Positions 6,747-38,708 of a stretch of DNA of 64,000 nt are shown in pieces. This DNA comes from Candidatus Eiseniibacteriota bacterium (GTDB lineage: Bacteria; Orphanbacterota; Orphanbacteria; Orphanbacterales; Orphanbacteraceae): contig JAFGGD010000026.1 in NCBI GenBank assembly GCA_016930695.1, positions 114,904 to 178,903 of the forward strand, read 5' to 3'. A program made the position numbers and the translations under genes. Each line of letters begins with the position of its first letter. The first letter of the stretch is position 1. The notes beneath the pieces were generated by a model. That model worked only from the letters and a program-made list of their open reading frames with translations, made no database searches and had not been told where the DNA came from.

Positions 6747-8659
<1,913 letters not shown>

Positions 8660-8663
<4 letters not shown>

Positions 8664-9115
8664 GCTTCCTCGTTCGATGCGCGCATGGCGTCGATTCCGT
8701 GGGCGGCGAGCAGCGGGGCGATCCGCGCCGCTTCCCGTATCGCGTCGTCGCGGAACGGCACGGGCACGCCGACCACGAGTATCTCGGGCGCCGGGTGGTC
8801 GAGAAGGTAGGGGAGGCAGCGGATCAGGTAGCCGATCCCCGCGGAGTGGCCGAAGGTCTCCGCGCCGGTTCGCGCCGCCTCCGCCCCGGTGGTCACCACC
8901 AGCCCTTCCCCCGGGTCGAATCCGATCGCCGCGTCGACGAATACGACGCGGTCCGCGCCCTCGACCCTCGGGAAGAGGTCCAGACCGGCCAGTCCGCCGT
9001 CCACCGCCTCCACCCCGGCGGGAAGCCCGTTCCGCGCGATGAGGTCGTACACGCGAGGCCCGGCGGAATCTTCCGGATGGTATCGGTTCCCGACGCAGAC
9101 CACTCGGTTCACCAT
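8660..9115 (-). CDS. [NiFe] hydrogenase maturation endopeptidase (HyaD/HybD/HoxW family)
   Basis: 151 aa. Family-typical N-terminus [18 protein letters not shown] and GVPVP motif. Immediately follows the large subunit. Confidence 0.8.
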
Positions 9116-9119
9116 CCCG

Positions 9120-10673: not shown

Positions 10674-10679
10674 GATCCT

Positions 10680-11618
10680 TTATACCTCGTTTTCCCGGCC
10701 CAGGAGCCGCTCCGGCGCGGCCGCCGCCGCCATTCCCTTGTAAGCCATGTAGTGGGCTCGGTCGACGCCCTCGGGCAGCTCGATCGGCAGGTTTTCGATG
10801 TTCGGCGTCTCGAAGAAGGGCGTGGCCTGCGGAAATCCCGGCTTGGTGCAACCGAAGCAGGGAACGCCGGCGCGGGTCTTGGAGCTGCGGCGATTCCAGA
10901 GCAGTTTGTTGCATGGCCCGTGGGCGAGCGGCCCGTGGCATCCCATGTGGAAGAAGAGGCAGCCCCTTTCGCCGAACTCCTTCTCCTCCACGCGGTACTC
11001 GTGATACTCGTTTCGCGTGCAGCCCTGGTGGACCAGCATGCCGTACCACTCCGTAGGGGTGCCGAGGCGGTCCAGGTGCAAGGGGACACCGCCCACCAGC
11101 GCCGTGAGGGTCCCGACCACCACGGACGGATGGCATGGACAGCCGGGGAGGTTGATCACCGGCATGCCGCTCCCGGAGGTCCAGGAGTCGCCCAGGAATC
11201 CCCCCTTTTGATCGCGGGTGAACTGAACGCCGCAAGCCTCCACCTCGCAGCTCGCCGGAATGCCGCCGAAGCTGGCGCACGTCCCGACGGCGATCACGTG
11301 TTCCGCCCGCGCGGCGAGCGCGGCGAGAAGGTCCTTCTTCGGGCGGCCGCTATGGGTGGCGTACATCCCCGTACCGGTGGGTCCGCGGATGACCGAGCCC
11401 TCCACGCATAGAATATGAAGGGGAAGGTCCCCCGCCGTGATCGCGCCGACCGTTCTCTCACGCTCCTTCGCATCGCACGCCGTCATGGAAGGGTGCCAGA
11501 GAACGCGCAGATCCAGTTTGTCCAATACCTGAACAAATCCCGGGGAATCGGCGCAAAGAAGGGACATGGTGTCGCCGCCGCAGGCGCCGCACTGCAACCA
11601 GAAAAGATTCAAGGACAT
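10680..11618 (-). CDS. [NiFe] hydrogenase small subunit, no Tat signal peptide (cytoplasmic, group-2-like)
   Basis: Begins directly MSLNLFWLQCGACGGD, the proximal-cluster motif. GTCASFGG and PGCPCHP present. Medial and distal cluster ligands HMGCHGP...C...CFGC present. No RRxFLK leader and no C-terminal TM anchor. Confidence 0.9.
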   Translation of the reverse strand: MSLNLFWLQCGACGGDTMSLLCADSPGFVQVLDKLDLRVLWHPSMTACDAKERERTVGAITAGDLPLHILCVEGSVIRGPTGTGMYATHSGRPKKDLLAALAARAEHVIAVGTCASFGGIPASCEVEACGVQFTRDQKGGFLGDSWTSGSGMPVINLPGCPCHPSVVVGTLTALVGGVPLHLDRLGTPTEWYGMLVHQGCTRNEYHEYRVEEKEFGERGCLFFHMGCHGPLAHGPCNKLLWNRRSSKTRAGVPCFGCTKPGFPQATPFFETPNIENLPIELPEGVDRAHYMAYKGMAAAAAPERLLGRENEV

Positions 11619-11629
11619 GACCGCCCCCC

Positions 11630-12910
11630 TCAGTCTCCTTTATTCATGGCCGGCAAGACCCCGCCGATCAATTCGGCGACCCTCTCCGGCGCTTTGTACT
11701 TGGCCGGCCGGTCGAGTTCGTCGAGCAATCCGTTCACTTCCGCCTTGAGCTGCACCATCCGCGTTTCCCGCTCCACCGTCTGACCCACGAGAATCTCCAG
11801 GCGGTGCTTCGCCTCGGAAATCTCCTTCATGTGCCGCTTCAGTTCTTCCTCGCTACTCTTCCTCTCCGTGATGTCCACGAAGGTCTCCAGGAGGAGCTCC
11901 TCATCGTCGAGCAGAAGCGGAAGAACGGACTTGAGAACCGGAATGGAACCTCCCGACGCGTCCAGCACGACCCCCTCGCGGTTGTGGATCGATTCCTCTC
12001 CACGCAGGACGGGGCACTCCTTCATCGGACTGGAACAAAAGGTGTCCCGGCAGCTTCGGCCGATCAGTTCCCCCTCGGTCCTCTCCAGGAGGGCCAGGGC
12101 GGCTTCGTTGACGCTGCGGATAGTCCCTCGCCGGTCCACGAGGACGACCGCGAACGGGAGCCCCTCCAAGGTGGCCCGCATCGTCTCGAGGGTCCGGCGC
12201 ACCGATTTCTCCGCCTCCCGGCGGCGCGTTTCCGTGGCGATGGCGTTGCGGATCACCGTGAGCAGGAGGATCACGACCACGCCGAGGATGGCCAGGAGCA
12301 CCCAGGCGAGCCGACGGGTCATCGCCGTGATTTCCCGCCGTTCGTCCTCGACGTAAAGACCGGTGCCGACGATCCATCCCCAGGCTTCGCAACCCTTCAC
12401 GTAGGATATTTTCGGCGCCACTCGGTCGGGATCGTCCTTCCACTGCCACATGTAATCGACGAAACCCTCTCCCCGTTCGCGCACGATGCGGACCATTTCG
12501 ACGACGAGGAGTTTTCCGTTCGGGTCGGCGTAATCACTCATGTCAGTCCCGTCCATGTCGGTGCGGTAGGGATGCATGAGCATGGTGGGATGCATGTCGT
12601 TGATCCAGAAATAGTCCTTCTTCTCCGGGCCGTAGCGGAGATGCCGGACATGATCCATCGCCGCTTTCTGCGCCGCTTCCCGCGTCAGCGTCCCTTCCTG
12701 TTCCAGGCGGACGTAGTAGTCGATCACGCTCCAGGCGATCGCGGTCTGTTCGCGCACCATCTCCATTTTCTTCGATCGGAGGCTTTCCTCGAACTGCGGC
12801 AGGATGAAGAGGAAGGCCGCGACCGTGAAGAGCGCGAGCGAGGCGAATACCGGCAGGAAGATACGGAGATGCAGGCCGTTCCAGATGGATGTCCGGTCGT
12901 CGTCCGGCAT
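11630..12910 (-). CDS. Membrane sensor protein: TM, Cache-like periplasmic domain, TM, PAS, coiled coil; no output domain
   Basis: Start chosen at MPDDD (GGAGAG SD). The upstream portion of the ORF is Gly/Arg-rich junk. Cache-like motif YFWINDMHPTMLMHP. Two hydrophobic segments. PAS-like region LEGLPFAVVLVDRRGTIRSVNEAALALL. C-terminal coiled coil. No kinase or GGDEF domain. Confidence 0.7.
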   Translation of the reverse strand: MPDDDRTSIWNGLHLRIFLPVFASLALFTVAAFLFILPQFEESLRSKKMEMVREQTAIAWSVIDYYVRLEQEGTLTREAAQKAAMDHVRHLRYGPEKKDYFWINDMHPTMLMHPYRTDMDGTDMSDYADPNGKLLVVEMVRIVRERGEGFVDYMWQWKDDPDRVAPKISYVKGCEAWGWIVGTGLYVEDERREITAMTRRLAWVLLAILGVVVILLLTVIRNAIATETRRREAEKSVRRTLETMRATLEGLPFAVVLVDRRGTIRSVNEAALALLERTEGELIGRSCRDTFCSSPMKECPVLRGEESIHNREGVVLDASGGSIPVLKSVLPLLLDDEELLLETFVDITERKSSEEELKRHMKEISEAKHRLEILVGQTVERETRMVQLKAEVNGLLDELDRPAKYKAPERVAELIGGVLPAMNKGD

Positions 12911-13355
12911 GTAATCTCTCCCGGTCCCCGGCGGTCCCGTGGCTTCTTGTAGATCGTATGGGAGGGCGATGGCCCCGAAGGCCATTCCCCGCGAGAACGT
13001 ACCCGTCCCTTCCCGGGTCCTTGTCCCGCTCGGGCTTGTGGCGGAGCGGGGCGCAAGGACCGTCCTCGAACGAGTTATCGGCATTCCCGAGAATTTCTTG
13101 CCCGTCGGGAAACGATCTGTCTTTCCCGGGGAAACCGGGGAGCGGAGCGGCGGGGGCGGGGGAGTGGGGCGAAAAATCCGCGCGGTTCCGTGCCGTTCGT
13201 CTCGAATCGGCCGGAAAGAGCGAGAAAGAGGAAAATCTTCCCTCCGCGTGGCCGGAGGGGCGGCGTTTCGGGAGGCGTGGACCCTTCATAAGAGAAGTCT
13301 TTGTGCCGAAAAATGATATAGAGACGATTTTCGGTTCCAGCAAGGGAGGGACGGA

Positions 13356-17494: not shown

Positions 17495-18910
17495 ATGAGC
17501 AACAGCGCGGGGAGCGTGTCGGACGGCGGCCTCTGGGGCAACCTCGTCCGATACTTCCGGGATTTCAAGGTCCTTCGTCACACCCGGTCCGAGTACTGGG
17601 GCATCCAGATCATCAATTTTCTCGACAGCACCACCTTCTTTTCCATCCTGACCATCGCCGTCATTCTCCTCTCCGACGATTTCGGGTTCAGTGACGAGAA
17701 GGCGGGGTACGTGGTCACCCTCTACGCGAGCACGACCACCATCTGTCTCTTCTTCTCCGGCATGGTCACCGATTGGCTCGGGATCCGGCGGGCGTTCTAC
17801 ACCGCCATGATCGGCCAGTTCCTTACACGCGGCGCGATCATGGTGCTCGCCCTCTCGCCGATGCTCTTCCCCGAGTACCGGGGCGTCATCGTCACCATCG
17901 CCTTCTTCTTGATGGCCCCCTTCGTGGCGATGATCCAGACCGTCTACCAGGCGGCGAACAAACGGTTCACCACCAAAAAGTCGCGCGGCGCCGGCTTCAA
18001 CCTCTGGTATCTCTTCATGAATATCGGCGCCTTCGCCGCGGGCCTGCTGATCGACTTCATCCGTCTTACCTTGGGGCTGCCGAACGGCCACATCTTCACC
18101 TTCGCCGTGATCGCCCACGTGATCTCCTTCTTCCTGATCATGGGATTCATCCGGCGCGAGGAGCAGATCTACGACGAGGGGGAGGAGCCGACGCCCGAGG
18201 AGGCGGCGAAGCCGAAGGAGCGCAAAACCCCTTGGCAGATCGCCGGCTCGGTGCTGAAAGAGTCGATCTTCTGGCGCTTCCTCGTTCTCATCTCGCTCCT
18301 CATCGGCGTGAGGGCGTGCTTCCTCTATCTGCATCTCCTTTGGCCCAAGTACTGGCTCCGGGTGATCGGCCCGGAGGCGAAGATCGGCGTGCTTCAGGCG
18401 ATCAATCCGTTTCTGGTGATCTTCGGGCTCATTCTGCTCATCCCGATTCTGAATCGGTTCAGCGTGTACAAGATGCTCACCTTCGGCGGCATGATCTCCG
18501 GCCTCTCTCTCTTCGTGTTGGCGGTCCCCTCCTACGGACACATGACCTACGTCTACTCCATCATCGCCCTGGTGGTCCTGACCGTGGGGGAGGTGATCTG
18601 GTCGCCGAGGCTGAACGAGTACACGGCGGCCATCGCGCCGGAGGGGCAGGAGGGGACCTACCTCGGATTGTCCATGGTCCCCTACTTCTTCGCGAAAACG
18701 GTGGTGAGCCTGCTTTCCGGCCACATGCTCACCCGCTGGGTTCCCCTCGACATGGGCGAGCGGCTGCGCGCCGGCACGGTCGCCTTCGTCGACTCGCCGA
18801 GTATGCTCTGGCTGATTCTGGGCGCATTCGCCCTCGGCGGTCCTCTCGTGGCGCTGCTGCTGAAGGACTGGTTCACCAAGGGAGCGCACTGGGAGAAGGC
18901 GCGCCGGTAA
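17495..18910 (+). CDS. MFS transporter
   Basis: Twelve predicted hydrophobic helices. MFS-like loop motif GMVTDWLGIRR after TM2. 471 aa. Confidence 0.8.
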   Translation: MSNSAGSVSDGGLWGNLVRYFRDFKVLRHTRSEYWGIQIINFLDSTTFFSILTIAVILLSDDFGFSDEKAGYVVTLYASTTTICLFFSGMVTDWLGIRRAFYTAMIGQFLTRGAIMVLALSPMLFPEYRGVIVTIAFFLMAPFVAMIQTVYQAANKRFTTKKSRGAGFNLWYLFMNIGAFAAGLLIDFIRLTLGLPNGHIFTFAVIAHVISFFLIMGFIRREEQIYDEGEEPTPEEAAKPKERKTPWQIAGSVLKESIFWRFLVLISLLIGVRACFLYLHLLWPKYWLRVIGPEAKIGVLQAINPFLVIFGLILLIPILNRFSVYKMLTFGGMISGLSLFVLAVPSYGHMTYVYSIIALVVLTVGEVIWSPRLNEYTAAIAPEGQEGTYLGLSMVPYFFAKTVVSLLSGHMLTRWVPLDMGERLRAGTVAFVDSPSMLWLILGAFALGGPLVALLLKDWFTKGAHWEKARR

Positions 18911-18933: not shown

Positions 18934-19647
18934 TCAACCCGCCGCCGCGACTTCCGCGAAACGGCGGAGGATCGCCGCCGCTTCCGGCGTCTCTCTTACG
19001 CCGGAGATCAGACGGTCCGGGTCGAGCCCCCCGGCGGCGAGTTCTTTGCGATAGGCGTCGACATAATCCGCGGTGATTCCGGCGTCGAATTCGGGGTGGA
19101 ACTGGACTCCCCAAACGCGGCTCCCGGCCCGGAACGCGGCGTGCGGGTCCGCGTCGGCGGAGGCGAGCAGAACCGCTCCGGGGGGAAGACGGAGCACGCG
19201 CTGGGCGTGGCTCGCCTGCGCGGGAAACGAATCGGGGAACCCACGGAAAAGAGGATCCCCCGCCGCTCCGGCGGCCGACCGGAAGGAGACGGTGCCGAAG
19301 TTCCTTCCCGCCGGGTTCGGCCCCACCTCGCCGCCGAGGGCGTAGGCGAGGATCTGATGGCCGAAACAGATCCCGAGAAGGGGCACTTCTTGCCGGACCG
19401 CGCCGGAGAGCCATTGCGCCGCGCGGATCATCCACGCCGTCCCGTCGGTCACGTTCTCCCGAGAACCGGTGACGACCACGCCGGCGTACTCCGCCGGGTC
19501 CGGAAGCGCCTCTCGCCGCCCGTCGGCGACCCGTACCGGAAGCCCTCCGCCCAAGCCCCGTCCGATCCAGTCCTCGAAATCGCCGCGTCTTTCGCGTATG
19601 CCGGGAAGCGCTTCCCCGACCTTCAAGATCAGCACGCCCTTCTTCAC
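18934..19647 (-). CDS. Class I glutamine amidotransferase domain protein
   Basis: GATase1 catalytic-Cys context GICFGHQIL and VQFHPE motif. 237 aa. Confidence 0.8.
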   Translation of the reverse strand: MKKGVLILKVGEALPGIRERRGDFEDWIGRGLGGGLPVRVADGRREALPDPAEYAGVVVTGSRENVTDGTAWMIRAAQWLSGAVRQEVPLLGICFGHQILAYALGGEVGPNPAGRNFGTVSFRSAAGAAGDPLFRGFPDSFPAQASHAQRVLRLPPGAVLLASADADPHAAFRAGSRVWGVQFHPEFDAGITADYVDAYRKELAAGGLDPDRLISGVRETPEAAAILRRFAEVAAAG

Positions 19648-19787
19648 GTTCTCTCCTCCGTTTCCATTCTAAAGGATCCCCGGCGCCCGCGCACGGGAAG
19701 GCGGTGGGGGAGATGAGACTTGAGATTGAGATCCTAAGAATGTAGACTGGGAACGCGTCTTTCCCCGGACGATCGCACGGAGGATTC

Positions 19788-22700
19788 ATGTCGCGCCGAA
19801 CCCCGCCCCGCATGCCTGCCGGTTATCGCGTGGAGAGCGTGCTCAAATCGGACGGCGAACGGGTGGTGGCGATCGCCCATCCCGCGGACGGCGGCGACAG
19901 GGTCGTATTGAAGGTGGTCGGCCCGCGCGCGGAGGAGATGGCCCGGGTCCGTTTCCATGACGTGATCCGCCTGCAGGGAGACCTCGTTCATCCCGGCATC
20001 TGCCCGATCATCAATGTCGGACGCACGCCCGACGGCGGCGTCTTCGCCGTCTATCCTTACGTGAAAACCGTCGATCCGGCGGCGTGGACGGCGGTGGATC
20101 GGAAGACCCGTTTTCCTCTCGTCGTGCGCGCCCTCTCGGAGCCGGTCGCCTTTCTCCACGAACACGGCCACGTTCACGGCGACCTCAAACCGTCGAACAT
20201 CCTGTTCCGGGCGGAGGAGGGGGAGATTCGCGATCTTCTTCTTACCGATTTTCTCCCTCCCCTCTTTTTTCGCGGGGACCGGCTCGGGACGATCGCCGGA
20301 ACATTGGGATACCTCGCCCCCGAGGCGATCCGCGGAAACGAACCGGATCACCGTTCCGATCTCTACTCGCTCGGCGCGACCCTCCACGAGATCCTCACCG
20401 GAAGCCCTCTCTTCACCGGTTCGGCGGAGGAGGTGGCTTGGGGGCATCTGTCGGCTCGGCCGCGGGTCGGCGCGCCGCGGGAGTGGAACCTTCCCGCTCG
20501 ATGGAACGAAGCATTGGAGCGTTTGCTCGCGAAGAGCCCCGCGGACCGGCCTCAGACGGCGCGGGATTTCCTGGCCGACTTCTTCGATGAAAAGCCCGGA
20601 AGCGGGCGCGTCACCGTGGTCGCCCGTCCCCCCCTGGTCGGCCGGGACTCCCTGCTCGAGGAGATGCGCGATTGGTCGAGCCTGGACGACCGCCCCTGTC
20701 TCGCCCTCCGGGGGGAGAAGGGGTGGGGGAAGACCCGCCTTCTCCGCGAATTCTCCCTTCAGCTCCGTTTGGACGGCGAGAAAGTCGCCTTCCTCTCCGT
20801 CCCGGAGGCGGTGTGCGACCGGCCTTACGAGGGGGCTCGCCTCCTCCTCGCGGCGATCTCCGCCGATCCCCTGCGGTGGGATCTGGGGCGCATCGCGTCG
20901 TCGCCGAGGCGCTCGGGGACGGCCGGGTCGAGCGGCGAACTCTCCCTCTTCCGCGCGATCTACCGGATCTGGGAAGAGAGGATCGCCGGTTTCGCGGATC
21001 GGGGAGGAAAGCCGATTCTCGTGATCGTCGACAACCTGGATCATTTCGACGACTCCTCTCTCCGTTTCTTCCGTTTCCTCCTTGATCGTGACGGTCCGCC
21101 GCCGGTCCGTTTTCTCGCCTCGATCGGATCGGTCGAATCCCCTCAGCTCTCCTCCCTTCTCGACCGTTTCGAGGAGCGAGGATTGCTCCGGACCTTAATG
21201 CTCGAGGTGCTCAGTGATTCCGACGTGGAAGAGTGGATTCGAGGCGTCCTCGGAAACGGAAAGGTCGACCCCGGGTTGACGCGGGAGGCGGTTCGTCGTT
21301 CCGGCGGCGTGCCGGCGCGGCTGGAGGGGCTGGCCAGGCGGTGGATCGCGCGCGGGCGCGTGCGGCGGAAGTACGGATCCTTCACGCTGTCCGAGACTCC
21401 GGCGCCGGGTGACGACGCGGGCGCCGGGGAGGAGAGCGCCGTCGGGCTCGATCCCGCCGGGCTTCCCCCGCGGGCGGCGCTGCTGGCCGCCGCCGTCGCC
21501 CTCTCGCCCATCGCGGGCGACGCGCCTTTCTATAGGAGGCTTCTCGGCGTTCCCGAGGAGGACTGGCCGGTGCTGGTGAACGCCCTGGTCGGGCGCGGGT
21601 GGATCCGGATCGATCCCGATCCCGCCGGCGATCGCTACTCCTTGAAAGACGAGGCGTTCCGCCCGGCGTTGGCCGGGATGATTTCGGCCGACACGCGGAC
21701 GAAGCTGCATCGCGCCGCGGCGCGGCTCCGCGCGGAGGAGGAGAAGAGGGGGGTGGAGGGAGCCTCGCTGATCGTCGCGCACCACCTGGCGGGCGCCGGA
21801 TCGTTCGCGGCGGCGAGACGGAAGCTCATGAAGGCGGCGGAGGGGATGGAACGTCTCTTTCTCTTCCGGGACGCGGCGCGGCTTTACCGGCGCGCCTCCG
21901 CCGTCGATCCCGGGAGCATCGCTCCCGGCGAGAGGGCGAAACTCCTTCTCCGGCTCGCCGAAACGCGGTTCCGGGCCGGCGAGACGCGGGGCGCCCGGGC
22001 GGCGGCGCGGCTTCTCCTCGCGTGGGGCCGCGACCGTGGGATCGATCGGTCCACGATTATCCGGGCCGGGCTTCTGGACGCCTGGATCTTCTGCAATCAA
22101 GGGAATCCCGGGCGCGCGGAGAAGAAACTCCGGGCCCTTCTGAGTCCCCCGGAGGGACTGTCACCGCGGGACCGGGCGGCGATCCTTCGCGATCTGGGGT
22201 GGGCGCTGCTCGACCAGAACCGGAAGGAGGAAGCCGGCCGGGCGCTCCGATCGGGGCTGGAGGCGCTCAAGGGAACGCGCGAGAGGGTGCTGAAAGGTCA
22301 AATCTTCAACCGTCTCGGAGCGATCGCCTATAACGGCCACGACTGGGCGCGCGCCATCACGTTTTACCGGCGGGCGGTCCGCGTCTTAGAGGGAACCGCG
22401 CCCGGCGAGGCGGTCCCCCCCTTGTCCAATCTGGCGCTCATTTATTATTGGACGGGGCGGCTTCGCGATGCGCGGGAGTCGATGGAGCGGACCCTCCGGA
22501 TCGCCCGGGAGACGGGAAACCTGATCGAGGAGGCGCGCATCTCGGAGGATCTGGCCCGCGTGTTCGCGCGTCTGGGCCGTTGGGAGGAAGCAGGTCGTCT
22601 TTTTCACGAAGCGTTCGTCACCTTCCGGGAGTACGGCGAGAGCGCTCACGAGGCGACCACGCTCCTCAGCATGGGGCACGCGGCCCGGGAGAGGGGAAGG

Positions 22701-24971
22701 CTCGTCGAGGCGCTCCGCCTCTCCGAGGACGGTCTCCGGATCGGTCGCCGGATCGTCAAGCCGATGCGGCTCGTCGACGGATTGAATCTGCTCGCGCTCT
22801 GTCACATCGCCCGGGAAGAACCGGATCGCGCGGAGGCGGTCCTCGCGGAGATCGAATCGCTCGCGCCGGGGGGATTGGGGGGGCGTCAGCTCGCCCTGAA
22901 CACGCGAACCCGGGGGAGGCTCGCCCGCCTGAGGGGAAGTTACGATGAGGCGGAAGTGCTTTTCGAGGAAGCGCTCCGCCTTTTCAAGTCGCAGAAGGCG
23001 AAACTCAACCTCGTTGAAACGCTTCTGATGATCGCGGCGTGCCGTCTGGATCGGGGAACGGGCCGCTCGCCTCTGGAGTCGCTCCGCTACGCCGAGCGCG
23101 CAATGAAACGGGAGGAGTATCCCCTGTTCGCCGTCCGGCTCCGTTTGTTGAAGGGGCGTTACGAGGAGAGCAGGGGACGGATCGCCGAGGCGGAAGCGCT
23201 CTACCGAGGGGTCGTGCGCGACGCCCGGCGGTTGGATCTCCGGATCGATCTGGCCGAGTCACTCGCACGACTGGGCGCCGTTTTCGCCGCGCAGGGGGCG
23301 AAGCGGCGGGCGAAGCGTCGTCTCGAGGAGGCGAAATCCCTTTACGACCGGATCCGTTTCGTCACTCCTCCTCCATTCCTCTCCCGTCTGCTGGCGAGCC
23401 TTCCCGGCCGGGAGGAAGCGCTCGGCGAAAGTTTTCAGACGATCTGCCGCATCTCGGAGGTGATCAATTCCCGGCGCGACGAGGAGCAGGTCCTCGCTTA
23501 TGTGTTGGATCAGGCGGTGGATTACCTTGGGGCGGAGAGGGGGCTGATTCTGCTGCGCGAGCCGGACGGTCGTCTCTTGCCGCGCAAGGCGCGTTCCCTG
23601 GAAGGAGAGAACCTGGCGGACGTGAGCCGATTCAGTCGCACCGTCTTCGGCATGGCGGAGCGATCCGAGGAGCCCTTCGTCACGGACAACGCCCTTCGAG
23701 ACGAGCGGTTCAGCGGCGCGGAGAGCGTGGCCTCCTTCAGCATTCTCTCCGTGATTTGCGCGCCCATCCGCTCCCGCGACCGGTTGATCGGAGCGATCTA
23801 CCTCGATCATCGCGAAACGGAGGGCGTCTTCTCGCCGCGCGACGTGAGGATCCTCGAAGCTCTCTCCCATCTCACCGGCATCGCGTTCGAGAACGCCCGC
23901 TACCGGCGCCTGTTGGAGAGCGAAAACGAGATGCTGCGCGAGGAGATCGACAGGCGGGAGCACGTCCACGACATCGTCACCGAGAGCCCGGTCATGAAAG
24001 GGATCCTCGACCGGCTTCGCCGGGCGGCGCGGGGGCGCATGCCGATTCTTCTCCTCGGGGAGACGGGCGTGGGGAAGAGCCTGATTGCCGGTTTCATCCA
24101 CGAAGAGAGCGACCGCCGGGACAAAGCCTTCCGCTCCCTCAACACGACGGCGATCCCGGAGACGCTCTTCGAGTCGGAGGTCTTCGGTAGCGAGCGGGGC
24201 GCCTTCTCCGGCGCGGATCAGCGCCGGATCGGGGCGTTCGAGCGGGCCGACGGGGGAACCCTCTTCCTGGACGAGATCGGCGGCATGAAAGTGGAGACCC
24301 AAAAGAAACTGCTTCGAGCCCTTCAAGACGGCACCTTCGAGAGACTGGGAGGAAGCGAAACGCTCCGGTCGGACGTCCGCCTCATCTCCGCCACCAACCA
24401 GGACCTCCAGTCGCTCATCGCCCGCGGCCTCTTTCGCAGCGATCTTCTTTACCGGATCAACGCGGAAACGGTGACGATTCCCCCTCTCCGGGAACGGCGG
24501 GAGGACATCATCCCCCTCGCGCGCGCTTTCCTGAAGAAGCACGCCCGGGAGAACCGCCGCCCGGTCCGCTCTATCTCCGACGAGGTCCTTTCCCTGTTTC
24601 TGTTCCACCATTGGCCGGGGAACGTGCGGGAGCTGGACTCCGCCATCGTGCGCGCCGTCTCCCTGTGCGACGGGGAACGGATCGAGGTGCGGGATCTGCC
24701 GGAGCACTTGAGCGCTCTCTTCCCGTCGATGGGGGCGGGTGGCTCGAGATCGAAGAAGCCGGAAGCCGATCTCGGGGCGGAGATGCGGGACATCGAGCGC
24801 GGCCGGGTTCTCGACGCGCTCCGCGGGAGCGATTGGAACAACACGGCCGCGGCGAAAAAGCTGGGCGTCCACGAATCCACGGTTCGGAAAAAGAGGAAGC
24901 AATACGGCCTCGATCGTTTCCGGCCGAAATCGTCTCCGCCGGACGACCCGTACGATCATACGAATCACTGA
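19788..24971 (+). CDS. Giant regulator: Ser/Thr protein kinase, STAND/AAA ATPase, TPR array, GAF, sigma-54 interaction AAA+ domain, Fis-type HTH
   Basis: Kinase motifs HGDLKPSNILF, DFL (DFG variant), GTLGYLAPE. Walker A GEKGWGKT. Long TPR-like helical region. GAF domain. Sigma-54 activator Walker A GETGVGKS, GAFSGA (GAFTGA variant), GGTLFLDEIG and R-finger region. C-terminal HTH AAKKLGVHESTVRKK. Confidence 0.85.
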   Translation: MSRRTPPRMPAGYRVESVLKSDGERVVAIAHPADGGDRVVLKVVGPRAEEMARVRFHDVIRLQGDLVHPGICPIINVGRTPDGGVFAVYPYVKTVDPAAWTAVDRKTRFPLVVRALSEPVAFLHEHGHVHGDLKPSNILFRAEEGEIRDLLLTDFLPPLFFRGDRLGTIAGTLGYLAPEAIRGNEPDHRSDLYSLGATLHEILTGSPLFTGSAEEVAWGHLSARPRVGAPREWNLPARWNEALERLLAKSPADRPQTARDFLADFFDEKPGSGRVTVVARPPLVGRDSLLEEMRDWSSLDDRPCLALRGEKGWGKTRLLREFSLQLRLDGEKVAFLSVPEAVCDRPYEGARLLLAAISADPLRWDLGRIASSPRRSGTAGSSGELSLFRAIYRIWEERIAGFADRGGKPILVIVDNLDHFDDSSLRFFRFLLDRDGPPPVRFLASIGSVESPQLSSLLDRFEERGLLRTLMLEVLSDSDVEEWIRGVLGNGKVDPGLTREAVRRSGGVPARLEGLARRWIARGRVRRKYGSFTLSETPAPGDDAGAGEESAVGLDPAGLPPRAALLAAAVALSPIAGDAPFYRRLLGVPEEDWPVLVNALVGRGWIRIDPDPAGDRYSLKDEAFRPALAGMISADTRTKLHRAAARLRAEEEKRGVEGASLIVAHHLAGAGSFAAARRKLMKAAEGMERLFLFRDAARLYRRASAVDPGSIAPGERAKLLLRLAETRFRAGETRGARAAARLLLAWGRDRGIDRSTIIRAGLLDAWIFCNQGNPGRAEKKLRALLSPPEGLSPRDRAAILRDLGWALLDQNRKEEAGRALRSGLEALKGTRERVLKGQIFNRLGAIAYNGHDWARAITFYRRAVRVLEGTAPGEAVPPLSNLALIYYWTGRLRDARESMERTLRIARETGNLIEEARISEDLARVFARLGRWEEAGRLFHEAFVTFREYGESAHEATTLLSMGHAARERGRLVEALRLSEDGLRIGRRIVKPMRLVDGLNLLALCHIAREEPDRAEAVLAEIESLAPGGLGGRQLALNTRTRGRLARLRGSYDEAEVLFEEALRLFKSQKAKLNLVETLLMIAACRLDRGTGRSPLESLRYAERAMKREEYPLFAVRLRLLKGRYEESRGRIAEAEALYRGVVRDARRLDLRIDLAESLARLGAVFAAQGAKRRAKRRLEEAKSLYDRIRFVTPPPFLSRLLASLPGREEALGESFQTICRISEVINSRRDEEQVLAYVLDQAVDYLGAERGLILLREPDGRLLPRKARSLEGENLADVSRFSRTVFGMAERSEEPFVTDNALRDERFSGAESVASFSILSVICAPIRSRDRLIGAIYLDHRETEGVFSPRDVRILEALSHLTGIAFENARYRRLLESENEMLREEIDRREHVHDIVTESPVMKGILDRLRRAARGRMPILLLGETGVGKSLIAGFIHEESDRRDKAFRSLNTTAIPETLFESEVFGSERGAFSGADQRRIGAFERADGGTLFLDEIGGMKVETQKKLLRALQDGTFERLGGSETLRSDVRLISATNQDLQSLIARGLFRSDLLYRINAETVTIPPLRERREDIIPLARAFLKKHARENRRPVRSISDEVLSLFLFHHWPGNVRELDSAIVRAVSLCDGERIEVRDLPEHLSALFPSMGAGGSRSKKPEADLGAEMRDIERGRVLDALRGSDWNNTAAAKKLGVHESTVRKKRKQYGLDRFRPKSSPPDDPYDHTNH

Positions 24972-25086
24972 CAGATTGACCATCCGCCCGCCACGCTCCC
25001 CGCGATCGTACTTACACTCTGATTCCTATGGAGATAGGGTCGCGGATCGGCCCGCGATGCCCCGATAAATTCGTACGCCCGTACGC

Positions 25087-25129: not shown

Positions 25130-25253
25130 TCCTCGTGAAGACAAGAGGTTGCTCGGTCATCGCGACGCCCGCGCCGCACGATCCTTGCCATGACGTTCCT
25201 TCGTGCTCGTCGTGTCTGTGAAGAACCGCGGACAAAACAGGAGGTTGTCGATC

Positions 25254-25472
25254 ATGAAGAGCCGCGCCCGATTTTCCGCAACGACGATGTTGATCGCGCT
25301 TTTCGCCTTTCTCTTCCTCTTTCTTCCGCAGATCCGTTTGGAGACGCCAGGGCAAGTTGGGGGGGGGCCTGCTATCGGGGTGATTCACGCCTATGCCGAC
25401 TCGGCGGACACCCTGCATAGCCCTCCCAACCCCTGGCCGCTTCCGGACGATCCGGACGATCCGCACCCCTAA
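25254..25472 (+). CDS. Small secreted or membrane-anchored protein (72 aa)
   Basis: AGGAGG SD before the ATG. Signal-like hydrophobic segment MLIALFAFLFLFLP. Pro/Asp-rich tail. Confidence 0.3.
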   Translation: MKSRARFSATTMLIALFAFLFLFLPQIRLETPGQVGGGPAIGVIHAYADSADTLHSPPNPWPLPDDPDDPHP

Positions 25473-25486
25473 GCAAGGAGAAGGAC

Positions 25487-26068
25487 ATGCCGTCGAAGAC
25501 GACAAGGTGCTTTGCAACCGGTAGGTGGTCTTGGGGGGGGAGCGGACACGTCCGCTCCTTACCCCTCGGAGGATTCAGGGACGATGCACTCGAAGCGTCG
25601 GTCCGGAACCTCCGTCGCTCCCTCGATTGCCGCGCGAACGTACTCATCACCGGAGACGTGGCGGCGGCGCGCGGTTTTTTCCGCGCCCGGCTCTCCTCGT
25701 CGCTTCGGGAAATCGGATGGCGGGATCTCAACAGAGAAGGACCGGCCATTCTCTTCTCTTCCCGCGCGGATCCGGAAGAGACGGTCTTCTTGGACAGGAT
25801 CGAGCGCCTCGACAGCTGGGTGCGCGCGGCACTTCTGGATCTGCTCGAAGCGGAGAACCACGGCGGGCAAGGGGTCGTTCCCCGGCTGATCAGCGGATGC
25901 TATCGGGAATCCGTTCGATCGCTCGGGGAGGCGTGTTTAGAGCGCGCCCTCTTCTATCGGTTGGGGGCGATCACCGTCCACGTTCCTTTCCGAAAGAGAG
26001 AGATTCTGCGGCGGTTTTTCGAAGACGAGGACCGAGCACTCGTCGCGCCGGGCGCGATTCGCGGTTGA
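25487..26068 (+). CDS. Degenerate sigma-54-activator-like AAA+ domain protein; Walker A and GAFTGA lost
   Basis: Aligns by eye to NtrC-type central domains (NVLITGDVAAARGF vs SVLITGESGTGKE; ALFYRLGAITVHVPFRKRE vs DLYYRLNVIxIxLPPLRER), but the P-loop lysine and sigma-54 contact loop are absent. AAGGAGAAGG SD. Confidence 0.5.
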   Translation: MPSKTTRCFATGRWSWGGSGHVRSLPLGGFRDDALEASVRNLRRSLDCRANVLITGDVAAARGFFRARLSSSLREIGWRDLNREGPAILFSSRADPEETVFLDRIERLDSWVRAALLDLLEAENHGGQGVVPRLISGCYRESVRSLGEACLERALFYRLGAITVHVPFRKREILRRFFEDEDRALVAPGAIRG

Positions 26069-26262
26069 CGCCTGAAAATCGGGGGCGGGAGAGCGAGGGC
26101 GCGGACCCGGCGGTGCGACACGCCTGCGTAGCGCCCCGCGCCCGCCCCCTCCGGGGGGGAAGGGCGACGGGGCGGACGAAACCATACGGACACCGAGGGA
26201 GCGGGAATGGGGGACGCGGGGGACACCGGAGCGCCACGGCGCTCCTAAAGGAGAACGGACCG

Positions 26263-27267
26263 GTGGGACCTGACGCGAACCTTTCGAGGAGCGAGAGCGG
26301 AGCCCGGCTCGAGGAGAAGCGGGGGCGCGACACGGAGAGGGACGAGAGGCCGCCCACGGGAGAGGCCGAGCGGCTGCGAAACGAGCTGGAGGAAACCCGG
26401 CGGACCGAGCGGAGGCTGCGGCGGCACAATCACGCATGGAGGCTTCTTTACAGAAAAAAGAAGGAAGACCTTCTCCTCGTCCGCGCGAGGCTGGAAGAGC
26501 TTCGCCGGCTGAGGAACGACTTTCTCACCTCCGTCTCCCACGAGCTTCGAACGCCGCTCACGTCGATCCTCTCCTCATCGGAGTATCTCCTTAACGGAGA
26601 CGAGCCGCCGCCGAAGAGCCGGCATTGCCTGGAAATGATCCGAACGGAAGGGGAGCGGCTGAACCGGATTATCGACGAGATTTTCGAGATCACCCGGCTG
26701 GGGGGCGAAGACTTGGAGTGGCGGGACGAGACGATCGACATGGGCCGGTTCGTTCGCGGGATCGTGGAGAAGGATCTGGACAAGGAGGGGGGGGACGGGG
26801 CGGCCCTTCGGGTGGAGATCGAGTCGAACGTGCCCCGGGCGCGCGCAGACGCCAAGCGATTGGAGGCCGTGCTCCGGTATCTGCTCACGAGGGTCCGGCG
26901 CGTCTTTTCGGGAGGCGGAGAGGTGAGGATCGTCGTGGGGCGCATGCTGTGGGAGCGCGGCGGAGAGTCGCGTCCGTGGGTCCGGGTGGTGATCGGGAAT
27001 GAAGGGTGGGGCGCTTCGGCGGAAGGGGAATACCGGCCGGACGTCGTGTCCATGGAGGAGAGGGGGGAGGAGGGATGGGGGCTCTCCGTCTGTCGTGACG
27101 TGATCACCCACTACGGCGGCGACCTCTGGTTCGAGAAGGCGGAGGGGAGCGCCGGGCGCGTCGTCTTCACCCTGCCCGCGGTGGGGGAGCCGCTGCCGAA
27201 CCGCGACCGGGCGGAAAGGGACCGGAGCTCCGGCGCCGTGGAAGGGGCCGTGCGCCCCCGCCGTTAA
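26263..27267 (+). CDS. Soluble histidine kinase (coiled-coil, HisKA, HATPase)
   Basis: GTG start after AAAGGAGA. H-box SHELRTPLTSI. HATPase G-box region GWGLSVCRDVITHYGGDLW. The upstream part of the long ORF in this frame is Arg-rich junk overlapping the previous gene. Confidence 0.75.
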   Translation: MGPDANLSRSESGARLEEKRGRDTERDERPPTGEAERLRNELEETRRTERRLRRHNHAWRLLYRKKKEDLLLVRARLEELRRLRNDFLTSVSHELRTPLTSILSSSEYLLNGDEPPPKSRHCLEMIRTEGERLNRIIDEIFEITRLGGEDLEWRDETIDMGRFVRGIVEKDLDKEGGDGAALRVEIESNVPRARADAKRLEAVLRYLLTRVRRVFSGGGEVRIVVGRMLWERGGESRPWVRVVIGNEGWGASAEGEYRPDVVSMEERGEEGWGLSVCRDVITHYGGDLWFEKAEGSAGRVVFTLPAVGEPLPNRDRAERDRSSGAVEGAVRPRR

Positions 27268-28963: not shown

Positions 28964-31000
28964 TCAACCGCCGCGGATGAGTGCGATCAGGATCGGCAGA
29001 AGGATCAGGAAGATCCCCATCAGGCTCTCGCCGGCGATCACCCCCGAGGCGACCGGGAAGGTGTAGAGCGCGTCCCGCTTCGGCCATTTTTTCTTCACGA
29101 TGTAAGCGACCACGCCGCCGAGGAACATCGAGAACCCGTAGTAAAAATGGAAGGTGAAGGCGAGGCCGAGCCCCATCGGCGAGGGGATCCACATATGGTG
29201 TTTCGAGGGGACGAGCCGGGTGAGCACCACGAGCAGGATCCCGAGGAGGCCGCCGATGACGAGCGCCGCCTGGGCGGTCGGGTGGAGCGCCCCGAGTCCC
29301 TGGGAGAGAAGGCGCGCCACCGAGGACCAGACCATGGCGGCCGGCGCGGGCCACTGGTCCGTGCCGAGAGCGGAGGCCTGCGGCACGAGCAGGTAGAACA
29401 CGGGGACCGTTACCGCCGTGCCGATGAAGATCCCGGCGAACTGCGCGAGGAACTGTTTCCTCGGGTTGGCGCCGAGCACGTAGCCGCTCTTCAGGTCGAT
29501 CAGCAGGTCCGAGGCGCTGTCCGCCACGCCGGCGGTGATGCAGGCCGCCATCAGGTTGATGTTCATCGTCTGCTGCGGCGCGTTGATGCGGAGCGATTTG
29601 GGGGTGATGGCGCCGTACATCAGCTGCGTCACTTTCCCCATGGCGCCCACGGGAGTCGTGTCCGTCTCGCCGGCGACCCGGCAGGCGACGAGGGCGAGGA
29701 AGAAGGAGAGAACGATCGCCAGGATCCCCATCCAGACCGGCATGCCGAAAACGAGGTAGGCGACGATGACGACGCCGATCCCGCCGACGAGCCCTCCGCC
29801 GGCGAACCAGGAGGAGGGAACCTCGATCTTCTCCATCGCCTCCTCTTCCTCGGTGAGCGCTTTGCGGCTCGACCGGGGCTTGAAGATGGCGGTGATGCCG
29901 CTGAGGGCGCGGCCGACGGCGCGCCACTGGAAGGCGAAGGCCAGAAGCCCGCTGGTCACCATGCAGGAAGCGCCCCCCCAGAGGGACCAGGAGACCATGG
30001 TGCGATAGTTCAGCGCCTCGATGACCCCCAGGTTGTGCATCCAGGGAACGAGAACGGCCCAGCAGAGAACGGAGCCGATCATGACGCTCGTCGCCACGCG
30101 GATTCCCATCAGTGCGCCGCCCGCCACCAGCAGGAGGCTTCCCTCCATGCCGACGGTGTACTGGAAGGCGCGCTCGCCGAAGATCGGGTAGGCGTAGCGG
30201 ATCAGAACGAACTCCCGGGTCATCACGCCGATCTCCCGGAACATCTCGAAGCCCTCGCGGAGGAAGGCGACCGTCGCGCCGATCCCGCCGGCGATGAAAA
30301 GGGAGCGCGCGCTCTTTTCCCCCTCCTCGGCGCTCGTCACCGTCCCCTCCACGTCCGCGAGTTCCTCGAGCGCCGCTTCTTCCGCCGATTTCTTGGGGGC
30401 CCCCTCCTTTTCGGCGGGGGTCTCCTCCGCGGACTCCAACAGGGGACCCTCCAGCGCCGGCTTGTGGTCGATGTCGCTGTGGAGGCTGCGAAGGGTCATG
30501 GCGGCCGCGATCCCCGAGGGGAAGCGGAGGCGCTCGACGTTGATCATCTGCCGCTTCATCGGGATGGCGAGGGTGACGCCGAGCACGGCGAGGAAGAAGA
30601 TCCACGCCGTCAACCAGCCGTAGGGAATGTGCTCCCCCGTCACCAGAAGGTAGGCGGCGATCGCCGAGACGAGCGTGCCGCCGGTGGAGTAACCCGCCGA
30701 CGACGCGGTGGACTGCATGGCGTTGTTCTCGAGCACCGACATGTCCGATTTCACGATCCCCAGCTTGCGGAAGGTCTTCCAGATCGCGAAGCTGAGCACG
30801 CAGGCGGTGATCGCCACGCCGAATCCCCAACCGGTTTTCAGGCCGATGTACAGGTTGGTGAGGGAGAGGACGGCGCCGAGGCAACCGCCCATAATGACCG
30901 CCCGCCATGTGAGCTGGGGCATGTCGCCCCGGTAGTGATCACGGAACCACTGTCGTTCCAGCTCCTCCGGCGACGGTCGATGTGTCTGGGATGAGGCCAT
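28964..31000 (-). CDS. OPT family oligopeptide transporter
   Basis: About 678-aa polytopic protein. N-terminal cytoplasmic segment then the OPT-like pattern LTWRAVIMGGCLGAVLSLTNLYIGLKTGWGFG. Start chosen at MASSQ with AAAGGA SD. Confidence 0.8.
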   Translation of the reverse strand: MASSQTHRPSPEELERQWFRDHYRGDMPQLTWRAVIMGGCLGAVLSLTNLYIGLKTGWGFGVAITACVLSFAIWKTFRKLGIVKSDMSVLENNAMQSTASSAGYSTGGTLVSAIAAYLLVTGEHIPYGWLTAWIFFLAVLGVTLAIPMKRQMINVERLRFPSGIAAAMTLRSLHSDIDHKPALEGPLLESAEETPAEKEGAPKKSAEEAALEELADVEGTVTSAEEGEKSARSLFIAGGIGATVAFLREGFEMFREIGVMTREFVLIRYAYPIFGERAFQYTVGMEGSLLLVAGGALMGIRVATSVMIGSVLCWAVLVPWMHNLGVIEALNYRTMVSWSLWGGASCMVTSGLLAFAFQWRAVGRALSGITAIFKPRSSRKALTEEEEAMEKIEVPSSWFAGGGLVGGIGVVIVAYLVFGMPVWMGILAIVLSFFLALVACRVAGETDTTPVGAMGKVTQLMYGAITPKSLRINAPQQTMNINLMAACITAGVADSASDLLIDLKSGYVLGANPRKQFLAQFAGIFIGTAVTVPVFYLLVPQASALGTDQWPAPAAMVWSSVARLLSQGLGALHPTAQAALVIGGLLGILLVVLTRLVPSKHHMWIPSPMGLGLAFTFHFYYGFSMFLGGVVAYIVKKKWPKRDALYTFPVASGVIAGESLMGIFLILLPILIALIRGG

Positions 31001-31183
31001 GACCGGTTCCTTTCTCGGGTGCGTGTGTACGGGTGCGCGAGACACGAGCATAACGCGGCGCTCCGCCGGTGGCAATCACCGGGACCGCCGCCGATTCCGG
31101 TTGGACCGTCCGCCCGGAAAGGGGAAAATAGGCCTGTGGATCGATCGGGCCGATCCCGGCCCGAGCCCGGAGAGGAGGGACTC

Positions 31184-37090: not shown

Positions 37091-37142
37091 TCTTTCCGTA
37101 CCTCCCTCTCCGCGCCGCGCGCGCCTCACCGCGCCGCGCGGT

Positions 37143-38489: not shown

Positions 38490-38661
38490 CCGGACCTCCT
38501 TTTCGTAGGCCCGGTTCCCGGGATTCAGGGCGCCGGGCGGAAAACCCCTGGGGGACGGCACCATAAGAACAAAAACCGACCCCGGAATCCAGCATTTTTA
38601 CACGATTTGCCTGTTTGTCCTCCGCCGCGCGCGCCGGGTCGCGGGGGATGCGTTTCCGGGG

Positions 38662-38690
38662 TTGACAGGAAGACGAAATGGACATATGTT
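38662..38690 (+). promoter_or_regulatory. Candidate sigma-70 promoter TTGACA-N17-TATGTT for the DUF134 / NifX-like / MinD-like operon
   Basis: Consensus -35 at 38662-38667 and -10 at 38685-38690 with a 17-bp spacer, immediately upstream of the start at 38709. Sits in a divergent intergenic region. Confidence 0.4.
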
Positions 38691-38708
38691 CAATACGAGG
38701 TGACCGGA

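Follow-up and report, generated by a model that had tools for sequence, protein, structure and literature searches.

A 64,000-nucleotide stretch of contig JAFGGD010000026.1 (assembly GCA_016930695.1, Candidatus Eiseniibacteriota bacterium; hereafter the window) carries on its forward strand, at positions 19788–24971, a gene for a 1727-residue protein that joins a Hanks-type Ser/Thr kinase domain, a STAND ATPase, a tetratricopeptide repeat (TPR) sensor and a bacterial enhancer-binding protein (EBP). We read this giant protein as a cytoplasmic, single-polypeptide activator of sigma-54-dependent transcription in which a NifA-type output is controlled by a PknK/MalT-type input, and whose likely target is the operon immediately downstream; we put the probability of this reading at about 0.6. 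The adjacent operon is the likely target because conserved palindromes and a −24/−12-type element precede its first gene, which encodes a small peptide with an exported-type N-terminus and a tail ending in PHP. This downstream regulatory unit of palindromes, −24/−12-type element and PHP-tailed peptide is common to five orthologous loci and is new. The architecture of the protein is already known in the sense that it is common in metagenomes, where it is annotated generically, and the mechanism is inferred throughout.

EBPs are regulated at the assembly of their rings, and STAND proteins are switches whose assembly a ligand triggers. Their combination with a kinase in one natural, widespread protein would show a new gating of sigma-54 transcription and would place three nucleotide-dependent checkpoints in one polypeptide. 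The locus offers a concrete set of targets (the palindromes, a promoter without the usual GG, an odd L1 loop, a secreted peptide and a dead AAA+ paralogue), and could inform both how sigma-54 reads variants of the −24 element and how decoy subunits tune AAA+ activators.

Domain layout of the giant protein

The open reading frame (ORF) begins with ATG and runs for 1727 codons without an internal stop; its GC content at third codon positions is 0.81, matching the neighbouring genes, and its codon-position GC is uniform. NCBI names the exact protein, on a 179,821-bp contig from a metagenome-assembled genome (MAG), 'MAG: sigma 54-interacting transcriptional regulator [Candidatus Eisenbacteria bacterium]'. 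Pfam, with every call exceeding its gathering cut-off, returns Pkinase (aa 33–256, E 8e-21), AAA_16 (aa 282–441, E 2e-16), TPR_MalT (aa 845–1026, E 2e-16) together with five TPR_12 stretches, GAF (aa 1230–1368, E 1e-18), Sigma54_activat (PF00158; aa 1396–1561, E 1e-59), AAA_lid_14 (aa 1568–1643) and HTH_8 (aa 1666–1706, E 3.5e-8). They bear out the composition and order that a preliminary description of this DNA had proposed, and the motifs it quoted are all found in the protein: HGDLKPSNILF from residue 130, GTLGYLAPE from 171 and GAFSGA from 1471. The Walker A sequences are GEKGWGKT in the STAND nucleotide-binding domain (NOD; from 309) and GETGVGKS in the EBP (from 1424); the EBP Walker B, LFLDEIG, starts at 1492.

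Combining Pfam with structural alignments and an AlphaFold2 model, we delimit seven regions, all on the plus strand. The kinase domain (aa 1–265; 19788–20582), supported by the PknB and family alignments, is followed by the NOD (AAA_16, aa 282–445; 20631–21122), which is marked by Pfam, motifs, AlphaFold2 and Foldseek. Next come a helical and winged-helix arm (aa ~446–633; 21123–21686), seen in the AlphaFold2 secondary structure and an alignment with the structure 6mfv, and a TPR-like alpha-solenoid sensor of about 27 helices (aa ~634–1204; 21687–23399), placed by Pfam and AlphaFold2. The GAF domain (aa 1230–1368; 23475–23891; Pfam, NifA alignment), the sigma-54 AAA+ domain with its lid (aa 1396–1643; 23973–24716; Pfam, motifs, NifA alignment) and a Fis-type HTH_8 DNA-binding helix-turn-helix (HTH) domain (aa 1666–1706; 24783–24905; Pfam) complete the chain. 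The repeat region described earlier as about 800 aa of TPR is thus present with a different extent, the model dividing it into an arm of about 190 aa and a solenoid of about 570 aa.

Orthologous proteins were drawn from independent assemblies (NCBI MAGs, Logan and ENA). Three of them, P0002, P0003 and P0004 (1714–1730 aa, 41–45% identity), align over 99–100% of the giant protein, itself numbered P0001. With the N-terminal 1200 aa as query, P0123 (1708 aa, 37% identity) matches aa 8–1198, and P0126 (1696 aa, 31% identity) is a more remote relative.

By sequence, the C-terminal part is a complete NifA-type EBP (GAF-AAA+-HTH). Over nearly their full length, its 517 residues can be aligned with the solved NifA structure 9qq6_C (E 4e-77), and the AAA+ domain has, besides its strong Sigma54_activat match, intact Walker A and Walker B motifs. 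The HTH_8 domain supplies the DNA-binding end, with the conserved palindromes described below as its putative sites.

The middle of the protein has the P-loop NOD, arm and repeat sensor of MalT-clade STAND proteins. An AlphaFold2 model of aa 270–1210, built on a 26-sequence family alignment, is confident (pLDDT 85.9, pTM 0.76) and shows a P-loop alpha/beta domain, a helical plus winged-helix arm and then the solenoid helices; among PDB structures, Foldseek ranks the STAND-TPR protein 6mfv first for this model (E 5e-13, 759 aligned columns). Besides its Walker A (309), the NOD in the window protein carries a Walker B VIVDN at 412, which reads VDN and not VDD. In sequence searches the TPR region matches the peptide-binding TPRs of LGN/Pins and kinesin light chain.

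The kinase domain aligns with Mycobacterium tuberculosis PknB (3f61, E 9e-25) and, in that alignment, retains beta3 Lys42, catalytic Asp132, Lys134, Asn137, Asp154 and the APE motif at 177–179. The catalytic residues on which the preliminary description had made its kinase assignment depend (Lys42, Asp132 and the DF-Asp154) are therefore present, and the Hanks-type Lys, Asp, Asn, DFG-Asp and APE are invariant across P0001–P0004. Mean pairwise identity among these four orthologues is 0.51 for the kinase, 0.40 for the NOD, 0.45 for the TPR region, 0.58 for GAF and 0.59 for AAA+, and two activation-loop Thr (GTIxGT) are invariant in all four. Because its identity exceeds that of the NOD and the TPR region and the activation-loop Thr are kept, the kinase domain is not in decay. 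Taken together, these comparisons assign the giant protein to the EBP family, where its L1 loop and candidate promoter are atypical, to the MalT-clade STAND proteins and to the Hanks kinase fold, the Gly-rich loop expected of the last being absent.

A conserved unit downstream of the activator gene

The five loci compared are the window and those of P0002 (L001), P0004 (L002), P0003 (L003) and P0123 (L075). A small ORF of 71–79 aa directly follows the activator gene in all five. The one in the window (25254–25472, +; NCBI hypothetical protein JW958_04695) is preceded by a ribosome-binding site, AGGAGG, and encodes a 72-aa peptide with a basic N-terminus, a hydrophobic stretch, an AYA-D motif and an acidic, Pro-rich tail ending in PDDPDDPHP. 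All five peptides share this plan: 2–4 N-terminal basic residues, a 15-residue hydrophobic stretch (Kyte-Doolittle 2.25–2.89), an A-x-A-[DE] motif at residues 46–49, and an acidic tail of 22–29 residues with 5–6 Asp/Glu, 0–1 Lys/Arg and 4–8 Pro, always terminated by PHP. The endings (PDDPDDPHP, PDDPTQPHP, PDDPTRPHP, PEDPGFPHP and QEPDVPHP) are the best-conserved part of the peptide. The window peptide has no match in Pfam or PADLOC, and a small-peptide search of the protein collection returned only itself and one relative at 85%.

The next gene in four of the five loci encodes a degenerate EBP-like AAA+ protein of 193–244 aa, which we call the decoy; in the window it lies at 25487–26068 (+), is 193 aa long, and is recognised weakly by Sigma54_activat (E 0.004) and by BLASTP against its own EBP (E 2e-4). 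The decoy is colinear with the EBP AAA+ core and has lost the Walker A Lys (GDVAAARG and similar) and the Walker B Glu (FLDR, FLSH, FLSR); a gap of about 21 residues takes out precisely the GAFTGA loop (GAFSGA in the window), and the protein ends before the lid and HTH. Counterparts occur in L001, L002 and L003 and in the more distant loci L004, L006 and L074. The genes after the decoy are two-component genes, namely a HisKA plus HATPase_c histidine kinase in the window (26065–27267, +, candidate start); L001 and L003 have response regulators at this place, and in L075 the peptide gene is directly followed by genes for a hybrid kinase and for a response regulator. Beyond the histidine kinase, a Glyco_transf_22/PMT_2 membrane protein and an OPT oligopeptide transporter are encoded on the minus strand. 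A few genes downstream of the cassette, L001 (18262–20787) and L003 (11042–13543) encode large Spermine_synth-domain proteins (704–841 aa); the window also has a Spermine_synth-domain protein (45660–47774), about 20 kb off.

Alignment of the intergenic regions of the orthologous loci yields a palindrome, TTCGTAC-N4-GTACGAA, which is perfect in L075 (AATTCGTACGATCGTACGAATT) and in L001 and L003 (TCGTACGATCGTACGA). The proximal copy in the window, TCGTACGCCCGTACGC (25071–25086), belongs to a site kept in all five loci at 101–105 bp from the −24 element; its core, CGTAC-N4-GTACG, occurs only this once in the 64 kb, against an expectation of 0.03. A distal enhancer-like site, CCGTACGATCATACGA (24948–24963), two mismatches from TCGTACGATCGTACGA, lies inside the 3′ end of the giant ORF and codes for PYDHT, the last codons of the activator gene. 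The perfect distal copies (L001, 15167–15182; L003, 9189–9204) code for a C-terminal SYDRT, and the conserved C-terminal residues (SYDRT; PYDHT in the window) are simply the palindrome's translation. A weak, isolated half-site TCGTAC (25006–25011), about 61 and 65 bp from the flanking full sites, could be chance.

Between the proximal palindrome and the peptide gene lies a −24/−12-type promoter candidate, CCGCACGATCCTTGCC (25174–25189, +), to be read against the consensus TGGCACG-N4-TTGCW, with C in place of the first G of the GG. Its counterparts are TCGCACGGTTCTTGCT in L001 (at 15334), TCGCACGGTCATTGCA in L002 (at 15444), CCGCACGTTCCTTGCT in L003 (at 9356) and TTGCACGGAATATGCA in L075 (at 10379), and the shared pattern is Y[CT]GCACG-N4-[TA]TGC. 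These four match 10 or 11 of the 12 consensus positions and the window element 9; YCGCACG-N4-TTGC is unique in the window, with 0.09 expected. From the start of the proximal site to the start of the −24 element the distance is 103 bp in the window, 105 in L001, 102 in L002, 105 in L003 and 103 in L075; the distal sites stand at −226/−227 (window, L002, L075) or −167 (L001, L003) from the −24 element, and the element ends 43–65 nt before the start codon in all five loci. Because this geometry is kept by five activators sharing only 37–45% identity, it is strong evidence for what we predict to be a functional enhancer-promoter unit, with the adjacent activator as the obvious candidate binding protein.

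The promoter candidate surfaced only through this comparison across loci. The preliminary description had advised looking for canonical promoters, especially before the neighbouring genes; the pattern TGGCAC-N5-TTGCW with up to two mismatches gave 5 matches against 10.5 expected, none of them near the gene. A consensus scan found no sigma-70-like site on the plus strand before the peptide gene. Rfam returned no match across the whole window, which leaves the intergenic conservation without an explanation by any known RNA element. YCGCAC-N5-TTGC is matched at just one further place in the window; this match, CCGCACTCCCATTGC (4000–4014, +), lies inside a cupin ORF (3838–4194), about 250 nt before a homoserine dehydrogenase gene and with no palindrome nearby, and is probably due to chance.

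Proposed mechanism and competing explanations

EBPs work only when assembled into rings, and in NifA-type proteins the AAA+ module is gated by the GAF domain. STAND proteins of the MalT/PknK scheme pass from a closed form with ADP to an open one with ATP once an inducer binds the sensor and arm; they then multimerise, and effector domains at either end do the signalling (PMC4381067). On the proposed reading, HTH_8 dimers of the giant protein would sit on the palindromes, and a ligand of the TPR sensor and arm, possibly a peptide given the LGN- and kinesin-light-chain-like repeats, would open the NOD, as in MalT. STAND-driven multimerisation would then gather the AAA+ modules into an active ring, with the GAF domain as a second gate as in NifA, and the ring would remodel the sigma-54 holoenzyme at the adjacent promoter. 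The kinase, which its conservation suggests is kept by selection, would be drawn together by this assembly and probably autophosphorylates or phosphorylates a partner upon oligomerisation. The downstream two-component proteins are candidate partners because transcription regulators, response regulators among them, are phosphorylated by PknK (PMC9045387). As a product of this operon, the decoy would probably join or cap the ring as negative feedback.

Several observations weigh against this reading, and the first group concerns the nucleotide-binding sites of the input. In the NOD, the Walker A Lys of the window protein is Arg in P0002–P0004 (GSSGSGRT, GPPGSGRT and GERGSGRS); because of this substitution in three orthologues, ATP turnover by the NOD may be weak, which suggests a nucleotide-binding switch with little turnover. 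In the kinase, the Gly-rich loop GxGxxG is absent (L19-KSDGER-V26 in the window protein; KSSDHG, GSRDHG and AEGDHR in P0002–P0004), and the DFG glycine is replaced in all of P0001–P0004 (DFLPP or DLAPA; DFL in the window).

Such losses would be expected if the N-terminal domain were a pseudokinase, that is, a nucleotide-binding or dimerisation scaffold for STAND/EBP assembly that takes no part in phospho-Ser/Thr signalling. The position of the alphaC Glu is likewise Val59 in the window protein, adjoining Asp58 in the PknB alignment, and all three features are canonical in most of the wider family, as seen when 118 members were aligned to PknB. In that survey the three Gly of the Gly-rich loop are present in 78, 84 and 62 of the 118, and the alphaC Glu in 98; the DFG Gly is kept in 103 and the DFG Asp in 108, the beta3 Lys in 99, the catalytic Asp in 111 and the Asn in 96, and APE is also kept. 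HGD replaces HRD across the family (Gly in 78/118, Arg in only 12/118), which places these kinases, by sequence, in the non-RD class. The usual criterion for a pseudokinase is loss of the Lys, the catalytic Asp and the DFG Asp. By these three residues the window domain does not qualify as one, its atypical ATP site notwithstanding: Lys42, Asp132, Asn137, Asp154, APE and both activation-loop Thr are invariant in the four orthologues, and the domain is better conserved than the NOD. Phosphotransfer by the window kinase is not assured, since neither the Gly-rich loop nor the DFG glycine survives in its orthologue group, and in this group the kinase may act mainly as a scaffold. The direct link from phospho-Ser/Thr signalling to sigma-54 promoters that the preliminary description had suggested is no more than a possibility. 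We regard a pure pseudokinase as a real possibility, if less likely than not.

The second group of adverse points concerns the output. The L1 loop of the window protein, GAFSGA, is a conservative variant of GAFTGA and is non-canonical; it reads GAFTDA in P0002–P0004 and GAYTDA in P0123, and is degenerate in P0126. None of the five loci has the first G of the −24 GG (C in four, T in one). Compiled sigma-54 promoters, and even deviant validated ones, keep TGG (PMC12316311). No RpoN box was found in six-frame translations, whether of the window or of related loci totalling 226 kb, so that sigma-54 in the host genome is assumed. The cis-element comparison rests on five loci, and a metagenome scan for the palindrome followed after 80–100 nt by GCACG-N4-TTGC gave 61 matches, none with an EBP upstream or a PHP-tailed ORF downstream; these 61 are chance matches and add no members to a regulon.

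Several of these points would fit an account in which the GCACG-N4-TTGC element is the site of some other protein or sigma factor, and the giant EBP acts elsewhere. It draws on the missing GG in 5/5 loci and on the lack of an rpoN in the sequences searched, and the non-canonical L1 loops cast doubt on standard contact with sigma-54. We consider this account unlikely in view of the exact −24/−12 spacing, the match to 10–11 of 12 consensus positions in four loci and 9 in the window, and the classical enhancer geometry of an element 43–65 nt before the start codon and 101–105 bp from a palindrome. Paralogous and distant loci, moreover, carry the canonical GG at the same relative position, and no sigma-70-like alternative was found on the plus strand. 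As a separate observation, the missing GG coincides with odd L1 loops in one orthologue group, the paralogues having GG promoters and the majority of the family GAFTGA (66 counted, followed by GSFTGA with 14); this may be co-variation.

The remaining alternatives leave the output as proposed or reassign the protein altogether. One is autoinduction of the RRNPP kind: the exported and processed peptide tail (P-[DE]-[DE]-P-x-x-PHP) would be re-imported, bound by the TPR region, and would activate its own activator. A TPR regulator beside a small exported-type peptide gene in 5/5 orthologous loci, with a similar arrangement in six distant ones, the concentration of peptide conservation at the C-terminal end, and the resemblance of the repeats to peptide-binding TPRs of LGN/Pins and kinesin light chain would all suit such a loop. 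An OPT oligopeptide transporter gene 3.5 kb from the peptide gene (28964–31075, −) is suggestive of peptide re-uptake, but it is not conserved in the orthologous loci. That the peptide is processed and taken up is purely conjectural, the hydrophobic stretch stops about 20 residues short of the AxA motif, which is atypical for signal-peptidase cleavage, and the regulator is not homologous to RRNPP proteins; on balance autoinduction seems quite improbable. More ambitious, and a long shot, is the idea that activator, PHP-tailed peptide and decoy form, in an uncultured phylum, a self-contained cell-cell signalling circuit, in which the TPR/STAND part would sense the re-imported peptide and build the AAA+ ring at the non-GG promoter, this promoter would be matched by the GAFSGA/GAFTDA loop, and the peptide would provide positive and the decoy negative feedback. 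Were it true, it would represent RRNPP-like peptide quorum-sensing logic built on sigma-54, outside the Firmicutes.

STAND NTPases and Ser/Thr kinases also occur in defence systems, and PADLOC kinase models (PD-T4-6, E 7e-35) and RtcR-type AAA+ models match the protein; a role as an anti-phage STAND (Avs-like) or kinase-based defence protein is nonetheless very improbable, these matches being generic and at the level of domains, with no system-level match and none for the neighbour genes, the output being complete and NifA-like with a conserved HTH and cognate palindromes, and the neighbours being housekeeping and transport genes. Least of all do we credit an artefact joining a kinase-STAND gene to an NtrC-like gene: the contig derives from a MAG, but chimerism or a frameshift is very unlikely because orthologues of similar length come from independent assemblies, P0002–P0004 covering virtually the whole query and P0123 nearly all of the N-terminal 1200 aa, and more than 100 further clusters share the order and length, in addition to the uniform codon-position GC.

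Family breadth, related systems and other features of the window

The fusion had been described initially as very unusual, which the protein collections contradict. Of the 120 best 90%-identity clusters, at least 111 have the kinase N-terminal to the EBP in the same order, the count of 111 coming from a local phmmer test; precomputed Pfam lists give kinase plus EBP in all but three of the 120, and the median length is 1688 aa. Named sources include Eisenbacteria, Acidobacteria, Planctomycetota, Gemmatimonadales, WOR-3, Vicinamibacterales and Sandaracinaceae, and six or more phyla are represented. With the N-terminal 1200 aa as query, 405 50%-identity clusters are returned at E ≤ 1e-30; among the top 150, 25 end in an EBP and the remainder have a different output or none, two of them resembling histidine kinases (in P0119, Pkinase, AAA_16, TPR and GAF are followed by HisKA-HATPase). 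Because the same N-terminal module precedes an EBP, a histidine kinase or other outputs, the kinase-STAND-TPR(-GAF) cassette is a modular input. The version with an EBP is a sizeable, widespread and uncharacterised family, annotated only generically. A scan of GTDB genomes with the giant protein gave only three partial relatives and was uninformative. In the literature we found no account of a Pkinase-STAND-TPR-GAF-EBP fusion, of its target operon, of the PHP-tailed peptide or of the decoy; an earlier bioinformatic mention is possible, and myxobacterial kinome work may have listed kinase/sigma-54 fusions.

Beyond the five orthologous loci, small signal-peptide ORFs adjoin the giant gene in six more distant ones, and canonical GG-N10-GC elements, each with its own palindrome, precede such adjoining ORFs in L004, L006, L007, L073 and L074. 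L004 (27% identity) has the palindrome TTCGCCAAAACAGGCGAA, a canonical TGGCATTCTGGTTGCA, a small signal-peptide ORF and a truncated EBP-like gene. The Eisenbacteria paralogue in L006 is accompanied by the same TTCGCC-N6-GGCGAA palindrome as L004, two GG-N10-GC elements, a 119-aa signal-peptide ORF, a 172-aa decoy and a PAS kinase. In L073, TGGAACTGTTATTGCA stands 33 nt before a 75-aa signal-peptide ORF of GIPQPPKPVPP repeats; in L074, where an uncalled signal-peptide ORF and a 156-aa decoy are found, TGGCACGGCCCCTGCT precedes a divergent secreted protein. L005 (5460–5520, 5960–5980) and L072 form a separate subfamily in which three TGCGGCAAATTGCCGCA palindromes flank divergent peptide genes, whose products are 71–74 aa long, exported and Asp/Pro-rich (DNEDPG...DPG.H.LP.W). 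In the Acidobacteria locus L007 (999–5866, 11397–12725), the genes just before the giant activator encode a C39-peptidase ABC exporter pair, and downstream of the activator lies a second, plain EBP preceded by a canonical TGGTACCGCGCTTGCT. As predicted from these sequences, giant activators usually adjoin a sigma-54-type promoter that would drive a small exported protein, and a degenerate AAA+ paralogue is often present too.

With NifA-type EBPs the giant protein shares the GAF-AAA+-HTH_8 alignment, the Walker A and B motifs, an L1 loop, the lid and the Fis-type HTH, but it adds 1200 N-terminal residues and has a GAFSGA loop, a candidate promoter without GG, and no nif context. Identity as a NifA equivalog was ruled out by its TIGR01817 score (336 bits, against a cut-off of 528.85) together with the missing context, no nif genes being present in the window. 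The MalT/PknK likeness lies in the NOD, arm and TPR-like sensor (AAA_16, TPR_MalT and the 6mfv fold match), and M. tuberculosis PknK also has an N-terminal kinase. MalT, whose last part is a LuxR-type DNA-binding domain, activates promoters with no enhancer-binding AAA+ module, and PknK is not known to have a DNA-binding output. The output of the giant protein is, by contrast with both, a second, sigma-54-specialised AAA+ ATPase, which gives three nucleotide-binding modules per polypeptide; unlike PknK, its kinase is non-RD with a degenerate Gly-rich loop.

In Myxococcus, work by Jelsbak and colleagues in 2005 reportedly linked Ser/Thr phosphorylation to sigma-54 activators through EBPs with FHA domains. 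There, the kinase is a protein distinct from the EBP, whose FHA domain reads phosphothreonine, whereas the kinase of the giant protein is fused in cis and no FHA domain is present; the window encodes no PP2C or FHA protein, and likewise no other EBP and no other Hanks kinase. The TOMM kinase/cyclase family TIGR03903 shares the N-terminal kinase-(NOD)-TPR input (match at aa 36–261 and more, E 2e-25), but its output, like that of P0119, is not an EBP, being a cyclase or a histidine kinase respectively; identity as a TOMM kinase/cyclase was ruled out at 89 bits against a cut-off of 706. The RRNPP systems of Firmicutes (PlcR/PapR, NprR, Rap/Phr) have a cytoplasmic TPR regulator encoded beside a small gene for an exported pro-peptide. 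Likeness to them is one of gene layout only, a TPR regulator beside an exported pro-peptide with a conserved C-terminus; there is no homology, the output is a sigma-54 EBP and not an HTH or phosphatase, and the phylum differs. An RRNPP regulator was accordingly rejected on the lack of homology and on Pfam and PDB matches that are those of STAND and EBP proteins, and a PADLOC defence protein on matches limited to generic kinase and RtcR-AAA+ domains.

Upstream of the giant gene lie an MFS transporter (17495–18910, +) and a class-I glutamine amidotransferase (18934–19647, −). A sigma-70-like promoter candidate, TTGAGA-17-TAGACT (19720–19748, +; 9/12 in a consensus scan), stands 40 bp upstream of the ORF; the gene's own promoter region has no TCGTAC palindrome, so nothing points to the activator controlling its own gene through this type of site.

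Three features elsewhere in the window may be mentioned. ARAGORN calls a 97-nt tRNA-Ser(gct) at 63867–63963 (−) inside a Peptidase_M29 ORF; Rfam has no tRNA there at gathering score, and the call is probably a false positive. Gene calls at 36906–39185 are ambiguous, a 759-aa plus-strand ORF (C-terminal DUF134/HTH) overlapping a 473-aa minus-strand ORF with matches to multihaem cytochrome c. At 6747–13084 (−), the small and large subunits of a NiFe hydrogenase and a HycI-like maturation protease are followed by a hybrid HisKA-HATPase_c kinase with two receiver domains and a Cache-PAS protein, a layout that resembles an H2-sensing regulatory hydrogenase unit.

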